Source: Escherichia coli
GTDB taxonomy: Bacteria > Pseudomonadota > Gammaproteobacteria > Enterobacterales > Enterobacteriaceae
Assembly: GCF_024298765.1 (NCBI RefSeq)
Contig: NZ_CP101210.1
Reading direction: 5' to 3' (one strand)
Length of the DNA stretch: 64,000 nucleotides
Shown in pieces: positions 10,385 to 58,286 of this stretch (the stretch's first letter is position 1; every line of letters begins with the position of its first letter). The position numbers were made by a program, and so were the translations under genes. The notes under the pieces are model-generated. The model had not been told where the DNA came from and searched no databases. It was given only the letters and a program-made list of their open reading frames with translations.

Positions 10385-10461
10385 TACTGCTCCTGAACGG
10401 TTTACAGGAGTAAGTGTAGACGTTGGGAAATGAAATTTGTGAAGTTAATCCTGTTGTAGCA

Positions 10462-11439
10462 GGGCAAGATTACGAAAGCCCGCTCCCCGTAAGGACTGAC
10501 GCCAGGTAGTTTCTGTCCATAGCTGCCCTTTCTATTCAAACGTGAAATCAATAAGTTCATCAGGGACATCACAAACAATATGAAGACGGGTTTCTTCTCT
10601 GCCGTGACTCTTTTCACTAATTGAGTAACTGTCGTGCTCTGGATTATTTAATTCTTTCAGCGGAAATTTTTCCTCAAAGGCTTTATTAAGCCGCCACCTG
10701 ATTTCCTTTTACAGCGAATAAATAATCACCTCCCTGTTTTTGTATCTTCTCTGCAATATCTTTCTGGCAACTCATCGCATCAGTTGTGATGATTTTTCCT
10801 TTAATATCCAGCATGTTAAGAAGTTCAGGGATAGCTGTAATTTCATTGGATTTCTCATCCGTCCTGATCTGTCCGATGACCAGACTGTGCATTGTTGAGA
10901 ACGCACTAATGACATGAATCGCTCCCCTGCGGCGACTCTTGTCATAAGAATGCCGGAGCGTTTTTCCATCAATTGCAATAACGTCTTTATCATCTGAAGA
11001 ATGGCAGTCACGCATCCAGTTAATAAAGCACTCGTGAAATTTTGAAGGACTGATACAGGATACAACTCTGGCGATGGTATCGTGAACAGGAATACCATTT
11101 TAAAAATCACCATATTGTTTTAAAAAATCGAGATGTGTTTCCCCAAAATCCTCTATATCTTCCCAACCATCTGCACCAGAAATAACGGCACAAATAGTCA
11201 ACAGTAGAATATCCGACAATTTATGTTCCACTTTTCCAGGATTGTCTGTAATCGGGAATAACAGAAATATGTTCCATCAATTTTTTAAGTACCATTTTGT
11301 TCTCCTTAATTATGTAAGGAGTATTTGATCATGTATAAGCAATAAAAAACAGCTTTAGGTAATGAGGAATATCTCAATTTTTAAACATAAAATGCGAATT
11401 GTCTAGTACAAAAAAGCAGCGTTACGTGATCTTTCCCTG
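10462..11439 (-). mobile_element. degenerate ISAs1-family (H-repeat) copy with internal deletion and frameshift
   Basis: Both ends match the ends of the intact copy at 13087..14388 (CAGGGxAAGATTACG... and ...CGTTACGTGATCTTTCCCTG); about 320 bp missing from the 3' part; ORF fragments 10686..11015 and 10772..11113. Confidence 0.7.
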
Positions 11440-11587: not shown

Positions 11588-12022
11588 TTATTTATGAATA
11601 TAATATAACTGAACATCATATTCATTATCACTTAAAACTATTAGTCGATCGGGAAATGTAAATGCTAATGAAAGATCATATGTTTCATTTATCGAAAACA
11701 AACTCAATATGAAATTTGAAAAATTTTCGACATGAAGAGATATGCAAACATCTCCATTATAGAATATATTGCAAAGAATATCTTTTTTCACATTCAGTGT
11801 ACTTTCAACATCTCTCGCTAGATCATTAATATTTAAAGGTAAATTGAAAACTCTCCTTTCAATAATATTATCGGTTTTATTTATTGCCATTAGCATTTCT
11901 CGATGCCACATGAAGTCATTCTTACGTAAGAATGATACATCAAAGGAAGTGACACCATTTAATTTAGAAGCATAATCTTTTGCTCTAATTAAATTTAATT
12001 TATCTTCAAGGCTAATTTTCAT
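11588..12022 (-). CDS. putative immunity protein of orphan Rhs C-terminal toxin
   Basis: 144 aa ORF starting 11 nt inside the 3' end of the toxin stub; position-based call only. Confidence 0.5.
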   Translation of the reverse strand: MKISLEDKLNLIRAKDYASKLNGVTSFDVSFLRKNDFMWHREMLMAINKTDNIIERRVFNLPLNINDLARDVESTLNVKKDILCNIFYNGDVCISLHVENFSNFILSLFSINETYDLSLAFTFPDRLIVLSDNEYDVQLYYIHK

Positions 12023-12470
12023 AATATATATGATGATCCTTAGTTACAGGGTCATTGATCTTCTGATATCTATCACTTTTGAAATCGTATGTTCTAGGAT
12101 CAGCGCCCGGTTTAGGTTGTCCTGCATGTGCGTGAGGGCCAGGTGCCCTAGGATCTGCCGTGTGCTCGACTACAACTTTCTTACGTCCGTAGGCATCTGT
12201 ATATTCATAATATCGCCCATGAGACCCTAAATCTTCCGAATATTTATAATTTGTTTGTCCCCTTCTTCTAGGATCATTTCCAACGGTCCATTGCCTATTA
12301 GGTTGCTGTGAACGAGGTATGCCCGCAAGATCTTTTGCTTTATTTAGTGCCTGACGACGGTTTCTTAATTCACCACATTTAAGACCAAGCGGATCTATCC
12401 AGCTTACTGGATTAGGCGCGTAAGCATATAAGTTTAGCCCCCCCGCCAGCCCTATCGGGTCGGGTTACGT
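12012..12470 (-). pseudogene. orphan rhs C-terminal stub: last ~25 core codons (..PIGLAGGLNLYAYAPNPVSWIDPLGL) plus ~125-aa toxin tip, no start codon
   Basis: Hand translation of minus strand; in-frame stop immediately upstream of the core remnant; absent from ORF track because it lacks a start. Confidence 0.6.
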
Positions 12471-13086: not shown

Positions 13087-14388
13087 ACATGGGAACCCAG
13101 GGAAAGATTACGAAAGCCCGCTCCCAGCAAGGACTGACGCCAGATAGTTTCTGTCCATGGCTGCTTTTCGCATCTTACGTCTTAACCCTGCCTTGAATAC
13201 CTTATCATTCGTCAAAATATTAATAGCGATGTGCCGTATCCCTGAAAATAATTCTGCTGCATTTCCTCTTCTTATTTTGCAGTCGTCTTCATTCATTACC
13301 ACGTCCAGACGCCAGTGCAGCTTATTCTCCACGTGCCAGTGGTTTCGGATTGCTGTGGCGAACTTCTCTGCGGTTAAATCAGCAGAACTGATATAATATC
13401 TGACCGTCATTTCTGGCTCTTTCTTTTGTTCTGCTATTATTGACCGAAAGGAGACTGCCACGCATAATTTCTTCAGACCTTTCCATTCAAACGTGAAATC
13501 AATAAGTTCATCAGGGACATCGCAAACAATATGAAGACGGATTTCTTCTCTGCCGTGACTTTTTTCACTAATTGCGTAACTGTCATGCTCTGGATTATTT
13601 AATTCTTTCAGTGGGAATTTTTCCTCAAAGGCTTTATTAAGCCGCCCCTGATTTCCTTTTACAGCGAATAAATAATCACCGCCCTGTTTTTGTATCTTCT
13701 CTGCGATATCTTTCTGGCACCCCATCGCATCAGTTGTGATAATTTTTCCTTTAATATCCAACATGTTAAGAAGTTCAGGGATAGCTGTGATCTCATTGGA
13801 TTTCTCATCCGTCCTGATCTGTCCGATGACCAGACTGTGCATTGTTGAGAACGCACTAATGACATGAATCGCTCCCCTGCGGCGACTCTTGTCATAAGAA
13901 TGCCGGAGCGTTTTTCCATCAATTGCAATAACGTCTTTATCATCTGAAGAATGGCAGTCACGCATCCAGTTAATAAAGCACTCGTGAAATTTTGCAGGAC
14001 TGATACAGGATACAACTCTGGCAATGGTATCGTGAACAGGAATACCATTTTCAAAATCACCATATTGCTTCAAAAAATCGAGATGTGTTTCCCCAAAATC
14101 CTCTATATCTTCCCAGCCTTCTGCACAAGAAATAACGGCACAAATAGTCAACAGTAGAATATCCGACAATTTATGTTCCACTTTCCAGGCTTGTCTGTAA
14201 TCGGGGATAATAGAAATATGTTCCATCAATTTTTTAAGTTCCATTTTGTTCTCCTTAATTATGTAAGGAGTATTTGACCATGTATACGCAATAAAAAACA
14301 GCTTCAGGTAATGAGGAATATCTCAATTTTTAAACATAAAATGCGAATTATTTAGTACAAAAAAGCAGCGTTACGTGATCTTTCCCTG
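13087..14388 (-). mobile_element. ISAs1-family insertion sequence (H-repeat), apparently intact
   Basis: About 1.3 kb; imperfect terminal inverted repeats; single 378-aa transposase ORF. Confidence 0.8.
13108..14244 (-). CDS. ISAs1-family transposase (H-repeat-associated protein)
   Basis: 378 aa, [32 protein letters not shown]..., matches Rhs-associated H-rpt proteins. Confidence 0.9.
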
Positions 14389-14395
14389 GTTAATC

Positions 14396-14725
14396 ATGGC
14401 TGAACACGATATTACGCCAGAAATCACCATTTCCAAAACACAGCGCCGCTATAAAGTCGGCTATGTCAGAGCCCGCCACATAAACAGCAAAACCTACATG
14501 ACCACGTACTACTCACGACACCCCAGCCTGAACCTCAAGGGCGACTGGCTGAAAGAGGCCGGATTTGATACCGGGCGGGGTGTCACGGTGAAGATTTCGG
14601 AGGGGTGCCTGACCATCATCGCTGACAGTGACGAGGTGCAGGAACTGCGGGAGGAACTTTATCAGGTTAAACAGGTGGTTAAGGGGATGCGGAGCGGGAT
14701 GTTTAGTGTGCTGAACGATAATTAA
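14396..14725 (+). CDS. SymE-family (type I toxin-like, AbrB-fold) protein
   Basis: 109 aa; LKGDWLKEAGFDTGRGVTVKISEGCLTIIA resembles the SymE core [30 protein letters not shown] (from memory); start trimmed from ORF 14375. Confidence 0.7.
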   Translation: MAEHDITPEITISKTQRRYKVGYVRARHINSKTYMTTYYSRHPSLNLKGDWLKEAGFDTGRGVTVKISEGCLTIIADSDEVQELREELYQVKQVVKGMRSGMFSVLNDN

Positions 14726-14776: not shown

Positions 14777-15145
14777 TTATTCAGGAAATTTTCTATTTTT
14801 ATATGATGACCATAAGTGAGTGATCGACCAAGAGTTTTCCTTTCCGAGTACAAAACTTTTGGAGATTATCTCAATATCATCAGATATACGCGAAGATATT
14901 TCAGAATTATTAATCACCCTGAATGAGTATTTAAATGCCTTTTCTCGCAAGGAATCAATAAACTCAATATCATCATCCTGAAAACTTTCCTTATCTAATG
15001 AATTAAACTCACTCATCCAGCAATCATCAAACTCCGGTTCATCTCTTGAGTCTAATGCACTATCAACATTTAATGATTTAAGAAAATCAAAAAATGACGG
15101 GGTGGATAAACAGTTATCAATTTCAATTAGCTTATTATTAATCAT
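14777..15145 (-). CDS. putative immunity protein of orphan Rhs toxin
   Basis: Acidic ~122 aa protein; ATG overlaps toxin stop in TGATG arrangement. Confidence 0.55.
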   Translation of the reverse strand: MINNKLIEIDNCLSTPSFFDFLKSLNVDSALDSRDEPEFDDCWMSEFNSLDKESFQDDDIEFIDSLREKAFKYSFRVINNSEISSRISDDIEIISKSFVLGKENSWSITHLWSSYKNRKFPE

Positions 15146-15790
15146 CACATTAACCCTTGTCCTTTGAGCCAAACCTCTATTAAATCAACAGCCTTGGATG
15201 GTGTCACATTAGTACCTAGCGTATAAGTTCCATTTGGAGATTTAACATCAACTCTGATGTCATCTAATTTTGAATACGCTTTTCTGTAAGCATCAAATAA
15301 CTCTTTATCCGAACCAAGGAAATCACCTTGTCTTGGACCTATCACATCTCGTTCCGCATGATGTAAACGCCAGTGATTATGTTCTGGATTTTCTCCTCTA
15401 GGGAATAATGTTGGGCGAGTTTTATCAGATCGGGAAACTTCAAACGGACGTCCTTTAGATTTACGAACCGCAGGAACATGATGTCCAGATTCACTCACGC
15501 CCATACACTTCTTCGTTAATCCAAGGGGATCGATCCAGCTTAACGGATTCGGTGCATAAGCATACAGGTTTAACCCGCCTCTTAGCCCTATCGGGTCCGT
15601 TACCATGAACCGCCCGACATCCGGATCATAGTACCTGTGCAGATTGTAATGCAGCCCCGTTTCCCTGTCGAGGTACTGTCCCTGGTAGCGCAGGTTCTGC
15701 TCCACCCCGCCGTGGTCCTTCTCCTGTATCGTGTTACCCCAGACCTGATACCCCGTCTCCCACACGATTTTCCCGTCACTGTCCGTCATC
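15145..15790 (-). pseudogene. orphan rhs C-terminal fragment: ~90 core codons + DPLGL + ~120-aa toxin tip with GHH signature
   Basis: ORF 15145..15825; core part near-identical to main rhs (MTDSDGKIVWETGYQVWGN...DPIGLRGGLNLYAYAPNPLSWIDPLGL); 5' end cut by ISAs1. Confidence 0.65.
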
Positions 15791-15792
15791 TC

Positions 15793-17084
15793 CAGGGCAA
15801 GATTACGAAAGCCCGCACCCCGCAAGGACTGACGCCAGATAGTTTCTGTCCATGGCTGCTTTTCGCATCTTACGTCTTAACCCTGCCTTGAATACCTTAT
15901 CATTCGTCAAAATATTAATAGCGATGTGCCGTATCCCTGAAAATAATTCTGCTGCATTTCCTCTTCTTATTTTGCAGTCGTCTTCATTCATTACCACGTC
16001 CAGACGCCAGTGCAGCTTATTCTCCACGTGCCAGTGATTTCGGATCGCTGTGGCGAACTTTTCTGCGGTTAAATCAGCAGAACTGATATAATATCTGACC
16101 GTCATTTCTGGCTCTTTCTTTTGTTCTGCTATTATGGACCGAAAGGAGACTGCCACGCATAATTTCTTCAGTCCTTTCCATTCAAACGTGAAATCAATAA
16201 GTTCATCAGGGACATCACAAACAATATGAAGACGGGTTTCTTCTCTGCCGTGACTCTTTTCACTAATTGAGTAACTGTCGTGCTCTGGATTATTTAATTC
16301 TTTCAGCGGAAATTTTTCCTCAAAGGCTTTATTAAGCCGCCACCTGATTTCCTTTTACAGCGAATAAATAATCACCTCCCTGTTTTTGTATCTTCTCTGC
16401 AATATCTTTCTGGCAACTCATCGCATCAGTTGTGATGATTTTTCCTTTAATATCCAGCATGTTAAGAAGTTCAGGGATAGCTGTAATTTCATTGGATTTC
16501 TCATCCGTCCTGATCTGTCCGATGACCAGACTGTGCATTGTTGAGAACGCACTAATGACATGAATCGCTCCCCTGCGGCGACTCTTGTCATAAGAATGCC
16601 GGAGCGTTTTTCCATCAATTGCAATAACGTCTTTATCATCTGAAGAATGGCAGTCACGCATCCAGTTAATAAAGCACTCGTGAAATTTTGCAGGACTGAT
16701 ACAGGATACAACTCTGGCAATGGTATCGTGAACAGGAATACCATTTTCAAAATCACCATATTGCTTCAAAAAATCGAGATGTGTTTCCCCAAAATCCTCT
16801 ATATCTTCCCAGCCTTCTGCACCAGAAATAACGGCACAAATAGTCAACAGTAGAATATCCGACAATTTATGTTCCACTTTCCAGGCTTGTCTGTAATCGG
16901 GGACAATAGAAATATGTTCCATCAATTTTTTAAGTTCCATTTTGTTCTCCTTAATTATGTAAGGAGTATTTGATCATGTATAAGCAATAAAAAACAGCTT
17001 TAGGTAATGAGGAATATCTCAAATCTTAAACATAAAATGCCAATTATTTAGTACAAAAAAGTAGCGTTACGTGATCTTTCCCTA
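15793..17084 (-). mobile_element. ISAs1-family copy, transposase frameshifted
   Basis: Same ends as the copy at 13087..14388; ORF split into 16332..16940 and 15803..16156; 1-bp difference (gccgccacctgattt vs gccgcccctgattt). Confidence 0.75.
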
Positions 17085-17089
17085 AAACG

Positions 17090-17555
17090 CAGACCCAGTT
17101 GTGCATAGTACACATGGTACGCAACAGCCTGCGGTTCGTGACGTGGAAAGACTATAAAGCGGTAACCCGTGACCTGAAACAGGTTTACCGCGCGGCCACG
17201 GAAGAAGGCGTGTTGCAGGCGCTGGATGCGTTCGGGAAGGAATGGGATGCACGGTACCCGCAGATAAGTCGCAGCTGGCGGGCAAACTGACCGAATGTTG
17301 CCACCTTCTTCGTGTACCCGGAGGCGATCCGAAAGGTTATCTACACCACTAACGCAATCGAATCGCTGAATAGCGTCATCAGACATGCGATAAAGAAAAG
17401 GAAAGTGTTCCCGACAGATGAATCGGTGAAAAAAGTGGTGTGGCTGGCTATCCAGTCAGCCTCACAGAAATGGACGATGCCACTTCAGGACTAGCGGATA
17501 GCCATGAGTCGCTTTATTATCGAGTTCGGTGACCGCCTTGACGGTCACTTCTGAG
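17090..17555 (+). pseudogene. IS256-family (Mutator-type) transposase, 3' remnant with frameshift
   Basis: ORFs 17099..17290 and 17312..17494 carry ...VHMVRNSLRFVTWKDYKAV... and ...IYTTNAIESLNSVIRHAIKKRKVFPTDESVKKVVWLAIQSASQKWTMP... Confidence 0.6.
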
Positions 17556-17619
17556 AAAGGCATTTACACAGAATGATGGACAGGCTCAACGGGAAGGCTA
17601 CATGCCTTCCCATTTTATA

Positions 17620-17946
17620 TTAATCACCCGGCTTCTCCCAACATTTTATCTTTTCTATTTCTCTCTCAATATCATCCATATCATCATCTCCAAGATCGGT
17701 ATTAAAATTTTCAGTAATAACCCTTCTTATTTCAGCCAACCGATGTGTAATATTTTTATCATCAATAAATTTAGTGGTTTCTTTAAAGTAAGAATTCAAC
17801 AATTTATCATCAATAACGTTCTGCTCTATACCATTGAAATAATACCTTGCAATATTCTTAAGTGATATCAATATGTACTCTACCTCACTTAGAATATAAA
17901 GGGCATCCTTCCCGGGTATATTAATTACATCATTGTTTTTATTCAT
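17620..17946 (-). CDS. putative immunity protein of orphan Rhs toxin
   Basis: 108 aa ORF starting 1 nt after the orphan toxin stop. Confidence 0.55.
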   Translation of the reverse strand: MNKNNDVINIPGKDALYILSEVEYILISLKNIARYYFNGIEQNVIDDKLLNSYFKETTKFIDDKNITHRLAEIRRVITENFNTDLGDDDMDDIEREIEKIKCWEKPGD

Positions 17947-17947
17947 A

Positions 17948-19735
17948 TTATTTACGCCGAGTTATTTTTGCATTATCAGAAAGAACAATATCACCTTTCA
18001 CAGTCAATTCATCTATATGGTATCGAGGGTTTGTTACCCACTCTAATTGCTCGTTAGGTACATCTGTTTCCACATAATCTCTACCTTTCCCACGACCTAT
18101 TTGATATTTCGCCTCTATGTCTACTTGACTGAGTGGTTTTTTATTCGCAGGTTCCAAATATACACGACCGTTATCATGCGCCTTAATTATCCCACTTTCA
18201 GCAATCGCATTTGAACCTTTACGATTAGTATAATGCCGCACACGAGTAGTTCCATTACAGAGCTCTTTTTTTAATCCGAGTGGATCAATATATTTCAGCG
18301 GATTAGGCGCATAAGCATATAAGTTCAACCCACCCGCCAGCCCTATCGGATCCGTTACAATGAACCGCCCGACATCCGGATCATAGTACCTGTGCAGATT
18401 GTAATGCAGCCCTGTTTCCCTGTCGAGGTACTGTCCCTGGTAGCGCAGGTTCTGCTCCACCCTGCCGTGGTCCTTCTCCTGTATCGTGTTACCCCAGACC
18501 TGATACCCCGTCTCCCACACGATTTTCCCGTCACTGTCCGTCATCTCTTCCGGCGCGCCGTTCACATCCGTGTGAAAATACAGTATCCGGTTCGGGCCCT
18601 CTTTGCCCGCCTTATCCACCCGCGCCAGCGGTTCATAACTCCCCGGGTCCCTGTAGATGTACAGGCTGTCTGTTCCCTCCGGCCTGCTCTCCTGCGCCAG
18701 CCGCATTCCGTCCCATAAAAATGCCGTCCGGTTGTACGGTTTACCGTCAGGGCTGATGTGCTGTTTTTCCGTCCGCCTCCCCAGCGCATCGTACACATAC
18801 CGGTACGTTCCCCGCGCTGTCGTCACTTCCACCATCCGGTGTTCCGCATCATAACGGTAACTCTGCGTGCCGCTCCGCCCCTCCTTTTCCACCGCACGGC
18901 CAAATTCGTCGTAACGGTAGTGCACACCACGGTAAGACATCAGCCGGTTGAACGGCACCACGCTGTTTTCTGCCGTGGCCCTTTCCCCCGCGCGCCGCCC
19001 CAGCAGGTTTCCCGCCGCGTCGTACTGCCAGCTCGCCAGATACCCCTCATCCTCCGAGCGGCACGCCGTGATGCGCCCCGTGGGGTCGTAGAAGTAATCC
19101 GTTTCCCCCCGCCGGCTGTGCCGCGTCTTCAGCAGTTCATCCTCGCCACTGTAGCTGTACTGCCGGTCCGTGAACGTCTCCGGTACCACCCCGCGCATCC
19201 CGCTGTATGTCTCCCTGCGCTTCAGCCGCCCGGCGGGGTCGTAAAGCTGCCGCGTGCTCAGTCGCCCCTGACTTCTGAGCACTTCACGGTGCAGGGCGTC
19301 ACGAGTGAACTCGCTGATGACCTCCCGGTCCAGATTTATCTGCTGGAGATGGCCGCTGCCGTAGTACAGATGACGCTGCGTTCTGCCGTCCGGAAAGGTG
19401 GTGGCTGTCCGGTTGCTGAGTTCATCGTACTGATGGGTCAGGACGCCCTGCGCCGTCTCCTCAGTCAGCATCCGCCCCAGTCTGTCGTAACTGAAACGGA
19501 TAATCTCCGGTGCGTCTGTTTCCCCGGCATCCGACCGTCGGCGGCGGATTTCCAGTAACTGGTCTGCCGCATCATGGACGTATTCCGTACGGCTATCGGC
19601 TGTCTCCTTTGCCGTGAGCCGGCCCGCCGCATCACGTGCCAGCCGGTGGCGGATTTCACCGCCCCGGTCCCCGGTGAACACCACTTCCGTGACCGCGTTC
19701 AGCGCGTTGTAGCGGTACGTCTGGCGGCAGCCGTC
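17948..19735 (-). pseudogene. orphan rhs fragment: ~490 core codons + ~105-aa alternative toxin tip, 5'-truncated
   Basis: ORF 17948..19753; homology to main rhs starts at ...CRQTYRYNALNAV; 18392-19735 is near-identical to 20910-22253. Confidence 0.75.
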
Positions 19736-19764
19736 GTGCTGCCAGCGCAGCATCTGCCCAACCG

Positions 19765-19978
19765 CAGCGACACGCCGGTGATCAAAATCAGCGCCAAATG
19801 GCTGAGAGAAGCGGGATTTGAGATCGGCACGGGCGTTACCGTGAAGATCTCGGAAGGCTGCCTGATCCTGCTTGCAGATAACAACGGAGTACAGGAACTG
19901 CGCAGGGAACTTTATCAGGTTAAACAGTCTGTTAAGGGGATGCGGAACGGGATGTTTAGTATGCTGAACGATAATTAA
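19765..19978 (+). pseudogene. SymE-family gene, C-terminal fragment
   Basis: ...IKISAKWLREAGFEIGTGVTVKISEGCLILLADNNGVQELRRELYQVKQSVKGMRNGMFSMLNDN homologous to 14396..14725; N-terminus lost at the orphan rhs junction. Confidence 0.6.
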
Positions 19979-56581: not shown

Positions 56582-58246
56582 ATGTGTTCAATTTTTGGCG
56601 TATTCGATATCAAAACAGACGCAGTTGAGCTGCGCAAGAAAGCACTCGAGCTGTCACGCCTGATGCGTCATCGTGGCCCGGACTGGTCCGGTATTTATGC
56701 CAGCGATAACGCCATTCTCGCCCACGAACGTCTGTCCATTGTTGACGTTAACGCGGGGGCGCAACCTCTCTACAACCAACAAAAAACCCACGTGCTGGCA
56801 GTAAACGGTGAAATCTACAACCACCAGGCATTGCGCGCTGAATATGGCGATCGTTACCAGTTCCAGACCGGGTCTGACTGTGAAGTGATCCTCGCGCTGT
56901 ATCAGGAAAAAGGGCCGGAATTTCTCGACGACTTGCAGGGCATGTTTGCCTTTGCCCTGTACGACAGCGAAAAAGATGCCTACCTGATTGGTCGCGACCA
57001 TCTGGGGATCATCCCACTGTATATGGGCTATGACGAACATGGTCAGCTGTATGTGGCCTCAGAAATGAAAGCCCTGGTGCCGGTATGCCGCACGATTAAA
57101 GAGTTCCCGGCGGGGAGCTATTTGTGGAGTCAGGACGGCGAGATCCGTTCTTATTATCACCGCGACTGGTTCGACTACGATGCGGTGAAAGATAACGTGA
57201 CCGACAAAAACGAGCTGCGTCAGGCACTGGAAGAATCCGTTAAAAGCCATCTGATGTCTGATGTGCCTTACGGTGTGCTGCTATCTGGTGGCCTGGATTC
57301 CTCAATTATTTCCGCTATCACCAAGAAATACGCAGCCCGTCGCGTGGAAGATCAGGAACGCTCTGAAGCCTGGTGGCCGCAGCTGCACTCCTTTGCTGTA
57401 GGTCTGCCGGGTTCACCGGATCTGAAGGCAGCCCAGGAAGTGGCAAACCATCTGGGCACTGTGCATCATGAAATTCACTTCACTGTACAGGAAGGTCTGG
57501 ACGCCATCCGCGACGTGATTTACCACATCGAAACCTATGACGTGACGACAATCCGCGCTTCAACACCGATGTATTTAATGTCGCGTAAGATCAAGGCGAT
57601 GGGCATTAAAATGGTGCTGTCCGGTGAAGGATCTGATGAAGTGTTTGGCGGTTATCTATACTTCCACAAAGCGCCGAATGCCAAAGAACTGCATGAAGAG
57701 ACGGTGCGTAAACTGCTGGCCCTGCATATGTATGACTGCGCGCGTGCCAACAAAGCGATGTCAGCCTGGGGCGTGGAAGCACGCGTTCCGTTCCTCGACA
57801 AAAAATTCCTCGACGTGGCGATGCGCATTAACCCACAGGATAAAATGTGCGGTAACGGCAAAATGGAAAAACACATCCTGCGTGAATGTTTTGAAGCGTA
57901 TCTGCCCGCAAGCGTGGCCTGGCGGCAGAAAGAGCAGTTCTCCGATGGCGTCGGTTACAGTTGGATCGACACCCTGAAAGAAGTGGCGGCGCAGCAGGTT
58001 TCTGATCAACAGCTGGAAACTGCCCGCTTCCGCTTCCCGTACAACACGCCGACGTCCAAAGAAGCGTATCTGTACCGCGAGATCTTTGAAGAACTGTTCC
58101 CGCTTCCGAGCGCCGCTGAGTGCGTGCCGGGCGGTCCTTCCGTCGCGTGTTCTTCCGCTAAAGCGATCGAATGGGATGAAGCGTTCAAAAAAATGGACGA
58201 TCCATCTGGTCGTGCGGTTGGTGTTCACCAGTCGGCGTATAAGTAA
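56582..58246 (+). CDS. asnB: asparagine synthetase B (glutamine-hydrolysing)
   Basis: 554 aa from MCSIFGVFDIK within ORF 56501..58246. Confidence 0.95.
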   Translation: MCSIFGVFDIKTDAVELRKKALELSRLMRHRGPDWSGIYASDNAILAHERLSIVDVNAGAQPLYNQQKTHVLAVNGEIYNHQALRAEYGDRYQFQTGSDCEVILALYQEKGPEFLDDLQGMFAFALYDSEKDAYLIGRDHLGIIPLYMGYDEHGQLYVASEMKALVPVCRTIKEFPAGSYLWSQDGEIRSYYHRDWFDYDAVKDNVTDKNELRQALEESVKSHLMSDVPYGVLLSGGLDSSIISAITKKYAARRVEDQERSEAWWPQLHSFAVGLPGSPDLKAAQEVANHLGTVHHEIHFTVQEGLDAIRDVIYHIETYDVTTIRASTPMYLMSRKIKAMGIKMVLSGEGSDEVFGGYLYFHKAPNAKELHEETVRKLLALHMYDCARANKAMSAWGVEARVPFLDKKFLDVAMRINPQDKMCGNGKMEKHILRECFEAYLPASVAWRQKEQFSDGVGYSWIDTLKEVAAQQVSDQQLETARFRFPYNTPTSKEAYLYREIFEELFPLPSAAECVPGGPSVACSSAKAIEWDEAFKKMDDPSGRAVGVHQSAYK

Positions 58247-58255
58247 GAAATGCGA

Positions 58256-58286
58256 AACAGCCCCGGTAAAATCCGGGGCTGTTTCA
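58256..58286. terminator. bidirectional hairpin terminator
   Basis: aaacagccccggtaaaatccggggctgttt between convergent asnB and 58288..58725. Confidence 0.6.

Follow-up and report, generated by a model that had tools for sequence, protein, structure and literature searches.

A truncated IS256-family relic between an ISEc1 copy and a putative Rhs immunity gene at the RhsC locus of Escherichia coli

At the RhsC locus of Escherichia coli, a transposase-like fragment is found between an ISAs1-family insertion sequence and a small gene that follows an Rhs toxin tip, which raises the question of what element the fragment derives from, where that element ends, whether any part of it still functions and how the remainder was lost. 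The DNA analyzed was a stretch of 64,000 nucleotides (contig NZ_CP101210.1 of assembly GCF_024298765.1), referred to here as the window. A first-pass annotation made from the sequence alone had described positions 17090–17610 as a frameshifted IS256-family remnant, with its 5′ part replaced by ISAs1 and with its end possibly marked by a hairpin. Judging by the annotated genes, the neighborhood is the RhsC locus, with kdpA and ybfA followed by a large RHS core gene, then partial RHS genes with small downstream ORFs, then SymE-family genes and three ISAs1-family copies, and finally ybgA and phrB. A 601-bp query (window 17040–17640) was found in E. coli chromosomes at 100% identity, for example in strain 104 (NZ_CP029164). 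It is textbook knowledge for this locus that H-repeats occur within Rhs elements and that orphan "C-terminal tips" lie downstream (PMC3032704).

Both neighbors of the fragment named in the first-pass annotation were recovered, namely an ISAs1-family element at 15793–17083 on the left and a 108-aa ORF at 17620–17946 on the right. The latter (minus strand, stop codon at 17620–17622) lies outside the IS and directly downstream of the Rhs orphan at 17948–19753 (minus strand), which carries a Tox-ART-HYD1 domain (PF15633, E 1.3e-13). It is the putative immunity gene of this tip, and neither Pfam nor NCBIfam gave a match for its product. Two further orphan Rhs tips are present on the minus strand, one with a Tox-HNH-EHHH domain (12012–12455) and one without a toxin match in Pfam (15145–15825). 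The toxin domains differ between the tips, and a short, unannotated ORF with a putative immunity function follows each of the three. It should also be noted that two ORFs of the SymE family (type I toxin, PF08845) lie antisense between the Rhs modules at 14375–14725 and 19574–19978 (both plus strand), the second of which overlaps orphan Rhs ORF 17948–19753 at its 5′ end.

The translation of the fragment matched the Pfam family Transposase_mut (PF00872) with an E value of 7.9e-33 over profile positions 248–377 of 379, scoring 114 bits where the cut-off is 21. It also matched the NCBIfam model "IS256 family transposase" (NF033543, E 9.4e-41) with 139.9 bits, less than the cut-off of 150 set for whole proteins, as no more than 155 of the 402 residues remain. 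The assignment to the IS256 family was therefore borne out, where the lack of any such match had been named beforehand as grounds to abandon it, and the right inverted repeat of the element was located as well. The relic spans 17087–17587 (plus strand), and its 501 bp correspond to nt 814–1314 of a 1314-bp element; the fragment reported earlier is thus real, well past what chance would give, with its bounds moved from 17090–17610. Within it, the transposase pseudogene (17087–17554, plus strand) retains codons 248–402 of 402 and the natural stop codon at 17552–17554, close to the estimate of about 150 surviving 3′ codons. The single frame 17078–17554 reads KTQTQLCIVHMVRNSLRF...YTTNAIESLNSVIRHAIKKRKVFPTDESVKK...GDRLDGHF and is interrupted only by two stop codons, and the peptide quoted in the first-pass annotation, YTTNAIESLNSVIRHAIKKRKVFPTDESVKK, is present in this frame. 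When the intact 402-aa transposase was used in tblastn, its residues 245–402 aligned to the relic. This was the only real match within the window, the second match to the intact IS being 26 bp at chance level (E 0.049).

The closest intact relative used as reference was the element of strain EA7 (L010:1188–2501), which belongs to an IS type of E. coli and Enterobacteriaceae, is 1314 bp in length and encodes an uninterrupted protein of 402 aa (WP_204147954.1). With its size and single transposase ORF it falls within the range of the IS256 family (~1.3–1.5 kb, one transposase ORF), and in RefSeq and in protein cluster names its type is called only "IS256 family transposase". The relic is alike in sequence and ends in the same right inverted repeat, differing in the absence of nt 1–813 and in two nonsense substitutions. 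Identity to this reference is 96.8% over all 501 bp with no indels, and identity to the copies in loci L002, L004 and L005 is 96–97.6% at the nucleotide level; across these four copies in other contexts a single-base gap is the most that was seen, with none against the intact reference. BLAST of E. coli genomes and plasmids returned many copies of the same type at 96–100% identity, with ISEc39 at ~72–76%. IS1414 shares the length class, inverted-repeat type and gene layout of this IS type; its identity is ~80% to the relic and 83% across the whole element (80–83% overall), a divergence too great for it to be the parent type itself. Part of the pseudogene was already flagged by RefSeq, in which 17090–17494 is annotated as "transposase; internal stop; incomplete; missing N-terminus". 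The relic is in this sense already known, an ordinary IS relic which shows no departure from known IS biology, and what the present analysis adds is base-pair boundaries for that pseudogene.

The relic had been described as frameshifted. This was ruled out by the alignment to the intact copy, which is free of gaps over the 501 bp; the frame is broken instead by two in-frame nonsense substitutions, TGG to TGA at 17288–17290 and TGG to TAG at 17492–17494, both being G-to-A changes of a tryptophan codon. These divide the frame into pieces of at most 60 aa. The CxxH motif (QLCIVH) and the glutamate of the DDE triad (AIES, E339 in the reference) are retained, and both catalytic aspartates (D166 and D232 in reference numbering) fall upstream of the break, so that the complete triad with CxxH that is present in the intact reference is missing from the relic. 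The DDE residues of the intact protein are predicted from motif position by analogy with ISCth4, for which a triad of D175/D241/E348 and a CxxH motif have been described (PMC7780238). The break at codon 248 lies within the family signature (residues 232–256 of the intact protein), and the left inverted repeat and the DNA-binding N-terminus were lost with nt 1–813. Eight substitutions are specific to the relic and are distributed 2/3/3 among codon positions, as would be expected under neutral decay, the number being small. Given the truncation, the lost aspartates and the two nonsense codons, no transposase can be made from the relic; with a single inverted repeat and no transposase, it is able neither to transpose nor to be mobilized. 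It is a member of the IS256 family by descent and not a functional one. The whole of 17087–17587 can with high confidence be taken as what is left of an IS256-family insertion sequence, a relic now dead and immobile, whose parent was a relative of IS1414.

The right end of the element is intact. Its terminal inverted repeat (IRR) lies at 17558–17587 (plus strand; reverse complement GAGCCTGTCCATCATTCTGTGTAAATGCCT); when it is compared with the left end (IRL) of complete copies, GAGCCTGTACATAGATTTGTGTAATTGCCT, 25 of the 30 positions agree. The repeat has a TGTAAA motif in subterminal position, a known feature of the IS256 family (PMC7780238), and in its length and imperfect match it agrees with the repeats of this family (~25–30 bp, imperfect, with TGTAAA). 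The homology of the copies in L002, L004, L005 and L010 and of IS1414 (L006) stops at the equivalent of 17587 (17588 for L004), with unrelated flanks beyond.

The hairpin reported near 17575–17600 is real, and its position was corrected to 17591–17611 (plus strand). It consists of GGGAAGGC-TACAT-GCCTTCCC, in which a perfect stem of 8 bp encloses a 5-nt loop, followed by ATTTTATATT. It begins 3 bp past the end of the IRR, and 8 nt separate its other end from the immunity ORF's stop codon. Folding gave −16.6 and −22.9 kcal/mol, which none of 200 shuffles equaled, with z-scores of −3.2 on the plus strand and −4.6 on the minus strand. The hairpin is unique within the window, where none would be expected by chance. 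An Rfam search of 16900–18000 returned only chance-level snoRNA matches (E ≥ 0.11).

With no more than 4 bp between it and the last transposase-homologous DNA, the hairpin could at first sight be a terminal structure of the IS256-family element, as had been proposed. This reading is very improbable, since the four copies and IS1414 all end before it in unrelated flanks without a hairpin, the IS in fact ends in the 30-bp inverted repeat corresponding to the left terminus of complete copies, and the exact hairpin 21-mer has no match in 100,044 species-representative genomes, though the IS type is widespread. Comparison of the flanks found no such hairpin beside the right end of the other IS copies. 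On these alignments the hairpin is 3′ flank DNA of the toxin/immunity module rather than the end of the IS. In the terminator scan of the plus strand, the 8-bp stem with six GC pairs followed by ATTTTATATT gave a score like that of an intrinsic terminator; in the sense of the immunity gene (minus strand) GTT and then IS DNA come after the stem, with no U-tract. By consensus scan and fold only, the hairpin looks like a terminator on the plus strand. In its present setting it would stop plus-strand transcripts leaving the relic before they enter the immunity gene in antisense. Should a module lacking the IS256 end be found to carry a T-run after GCCTTCCCGTT, the hairpin would be the module's own bidirectional terminator.

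In three separate searches of 5426 complete E. coli genomes, the ISEc1–IS256 junction, the junction of the IS256 end with the hairpin, and the hairpin together with the immunity gene were each found in 72 genomes, and the IS end adjoins the hairpin in all 72 of the genomes that carry the immunity gene. Ten other assemblies with an identical immunity protein likewise showed the order hairpin, relic, ISEc1 junction. The block from ISEc1 end through relic and hairpin to immunity gene, carried for instance by strain 104 and APEC O2-211, is of modest value as a stable marker of one lineage of RhsC ART-HYD1 modules. Invariance of the block in 72 genomes might also be read as a sign of selection on a domesticated gene or regulatory element, such as a truncated transposase acting as regulator or an outward −35-like sequence, given that outward-directed −35 elements can occur at the right ends of IS256-family members (PMC7780238) and that the relic has TTTACA at 17563–17568. 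Such a function is highly unlikely. The invariance is explained by recent common descent, the copies being at least 99% identical; the relic-specific substitutions are without codon-position bias, and the two nonsense codons leave no piece longer than 60 aa. An outward hybrid promoter from the IRR was also rejected as a candidate, as the promoter scan found no suitable −10 element after TTTACA on that strand and the terminator-like hairpin comes next.

The left neighbor (copy B; 15793–17083, minus strand) is a full-length ISEc1/H-repeat element of 1291 bp belonging to the ISAs1 family, and its transposase-proximal end abuts the relic. Its transposase is frameshifted, with ORFs at 16332–16940 and 15803–16156 which matched NCBIfam NF033564 (E 6e-77 and 1.7e-29), and RefSeq names it "ISAs1 family transposase, frameshifted". 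Over 1292 bp it shares 97.4% identity with copy A, which is intact (13097–14387). A third, internally deleted copy is located at 10460–11438 (copy C), and all three share the same orientation and are 97–98% identical. Copy B has the ISAs1-type transposase, the full length and the CAGGG...CCCTG ends of its family, with the terminus at the junction reading ...CCCTA versus the canonical ...CCCTG. Other ISEc1 copies across E. coli align exactly up to 17083 and IS256 homology starts at 17087, leaving an AAA (17084–17086) that separates the two; the junction is resolved no better than 17084–17087. As a side observation, copy B ends in ...CTTTCCCT-A and every other copy examined in ...CTTTCCCT-G (17083–17084); the terminal A may be either a mutated base or a sign that the junction falls 1 bp short of the canonical terminus.

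Since ISEc1 is of full length with its terminus at the break and the IS256 element is cut internally, IS256 arrived first and ISAs1 second, in agreement with the first-pass annotation, which had seen successive IS invasions here. The coincidence of the break with the ISEc1 terminus also suggests that the junction was made by ISEc1 transposition rather than by random deletion. It is nevertheless not a simple insertion, because 813 bp of the IS256 element are missing (this 5′ part was not found anywhere within the window), the far flank of copy B is an unrelated orphan Rhs core fragment (15145–15792), no target duplication flanking copy B was found, and the terminal base is A instead of G. With its terminal A in place of the canonical G, the junction is not a textbook clean transposition product. 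The earlier statement that the 5′ part was replaced by ISAs1 holds insofar as the ISEc1 terminus stands at the break; the missing 813 bp and the absent target duplication call for a deletion or recombination in addition.

In the history proposed here, an IS256-family element would first have inserted 3 bp from the terminator-like hairpin, just downstream of the ART-HYD1 immunity gene. An ISEc1 end would later have been joined to IS256 nt 813/814 through ISEc1 transposition, the break matching the ISEc1 terminus within 1–3 bp. The first 813 bp of IS256 would then have been lost by homologous recombination between ISEc1 copies, or by an ISEc1-mediated adjacent deletion simultaneous with the joining. 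The order and number of these steps are inferred and were not observed. A full IS256 element at this site would be expected to show a target duplication of 8 bp (AACGGGAA), those of the family being 8–9 bp long; in the window the left end is gone together with its flank. The genome searches found neither the state preceding ISEc1, with a full IS256 element beside the immunity gene, nor an empty site; a chimeric query, joining the 500 bp that precede the break in IS256 to the relic and its flank, reached a coverage of at least 80% in none of the 5426 genomes.

The variation between strains bears on how the 5′ part may have been lost. In two loci (L016 and L019) the ART-HYD1 tip is carried by the main Rhs protein of 1544 aa and the ISEc1–IS256 junction is unchanged, and a single internally deleted ISEc1 joins the relic directly to ybgA. 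The counterpart of this single ISEc1 in the window is copy C, ~4.4 kb of orphan toxin/immunity modules that include copy A, and copy B. Such variation of the ISEc1 array is consistent with the pattern that homologous ISEc1 recombination would produce, with the gain or loss of modules, and the comparison illustrates how ISEc1 copies can serve as portable homology by which orphan Rhs toxin modules are added or removed. Under the first of two possible routes, ISEc1 inserted simply at IS256 nt 813/814 and then recombined with a directly oriented ISEc1 copy of RhsC, so that the IS256 5′ part and the intervening DNA were deleted and a hybrid ISEc1 without target duplications was left. In its favor, the window has three ISEc1 copies of the same orientation that are 97–98% identical, and copy B has no target duplication and stands between unrelated flanks; L016 and L019 depart from the window in just the way predicted for recombination between ISEc1 copies. 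Against it, an intermediate with both IS256 halves around ISEc1 was found in no genome, and we would put the prospect of this route being correct at about even.

The second route is a single step, in which the ISEc1 copy at the distal RhsC boundary (ybfD-type, next to ybgA) transposed intramolecularly into the neighboring IS256 element with an adjacent deletion up to nt 813. An adjacent deletion yields an exact IS terminus and no target duplication, as seen here. In L016 and L019, which have the simplest architecture, nothing lies between the relic and the boundary ISEc1 next to ybgA, and K-12 likewise has an ISEc1 copy at that position. However, H-repeats have not been seen to transpose, according to PMC3032704; the boundary copy, which carries an internal deletion, would depend on transposase provided in trans; and the terminal base at the junction is non-canonical. 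The single step is thus a tenable possibility of lower standing, and insertion followed by recombination between ISEc1 copies is somewhat favored over it.

The relic itself has been entered again in one strain. In L015 (GCA_052936215.1; L015:3665–6202) an IS21-family element, encoding an IstA with rve and Mu-transposase C domains together with IstB, lies inside the relic at the equivalent of 17282 and so represents a third IS layer.

A truncation of the same kind was found at the yafV/ivy Rhs locus. In strains C1 (L011:4457–6140) and 266917_2 (L012:4711–6400) a full ISEc1 terminus abuts IS256 nt 961, leaving a 354-bp 3′ relic with its right end intact. This relic is of the same IS type as that of RhsC (95.5% identity) and has ISEc1 likewise at the distal Rhs edge, whereas it differs in its breakpoint (nt 961 versus nt 814), in the opposite ISEc1 end, in the opposite relative orientation and in its yafV flank. 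As breakpoint, ISEc1 end and orientation all differ, the truncation at yafV was an independent event. Unlike at RhsC, the untruncated IS256 state is still extant at this locus: strain LHM10-1 (L008; 1189–2540) carries a full-length but frameshifted copy of the relic's IS type. Short ISAs1-terminal fragments were also seen to the right of the IS256 end at yafV, 38 bp in L008 and 23 bp in L011, and these suggest repeated nesting of ISEc1/ISAs1 and IS256-type elements. One could go further and regard the relic as one of several natural footprints of a transpositionally active ISEc1, perhaps one that repeatedly hit or deleted beside this particular IS256-type element at distal Rhs edges, but this is improbable. 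If it were true, the two junctions of an ISEc1 terminus with internal IS256 DNA (RhsC and yafV) and the ISAs1 fragments would hint at mutual targeting or at a shared preferred region.

IS1414 has been described as an IS256-family element of E. coli that carries astA, the EAST1 gene, overlapping its transposase gene in the −1 frame (McVeigh et al., 2000, as cited in PMC12585946). The 5′ edge of the relic (17078–17170, in the frame of 17037) is homologous to the astA region of IS1414 (L006:1467–1583), in which the astA frame encodes MPSTQYIRRPASSYASCIWCATACASCHGRTTRPSLAT. EAST1 coding in the relic was considered and rejected, since the astA-equivalent frame is truncated, has lost its start codon and contains stops, which are also present in the intact reference (L010, 1981–2019).

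The RhsC locus of K-12 contains the ISEc1/H-repeat copies ybfL, ybfD and ybfQ, of which ybfL is 96% identical to copy B and occupies the same locus between rhsC and ybgA. The K-12 locus differs from the window in having no IS256 relic; ybfQ ("inactive transposase") was considered as a PF00872 relic and shown by alignment to be an ISAs1 fragment. Remnants of the relic's IS type are very common, and a search for it gave some match in 4416 of the 5426 genomes, most of which, K-12 included, have a 102-bp left-end piece at 99% identity, and a place covering at least 80% of the element was found in 840 genomes, a number that includes IS1414 and other relatives down to ~76% identity. K-12 (NC_000913.3) also has, around 58217–58281, a 62-bp right-end piece of the IS type at 86% identity. 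The position of these tiny relics (62 bp of the right end and 102 bp of the left) at conserved chromosomal sites indicates that this IS lineage is old in the species.
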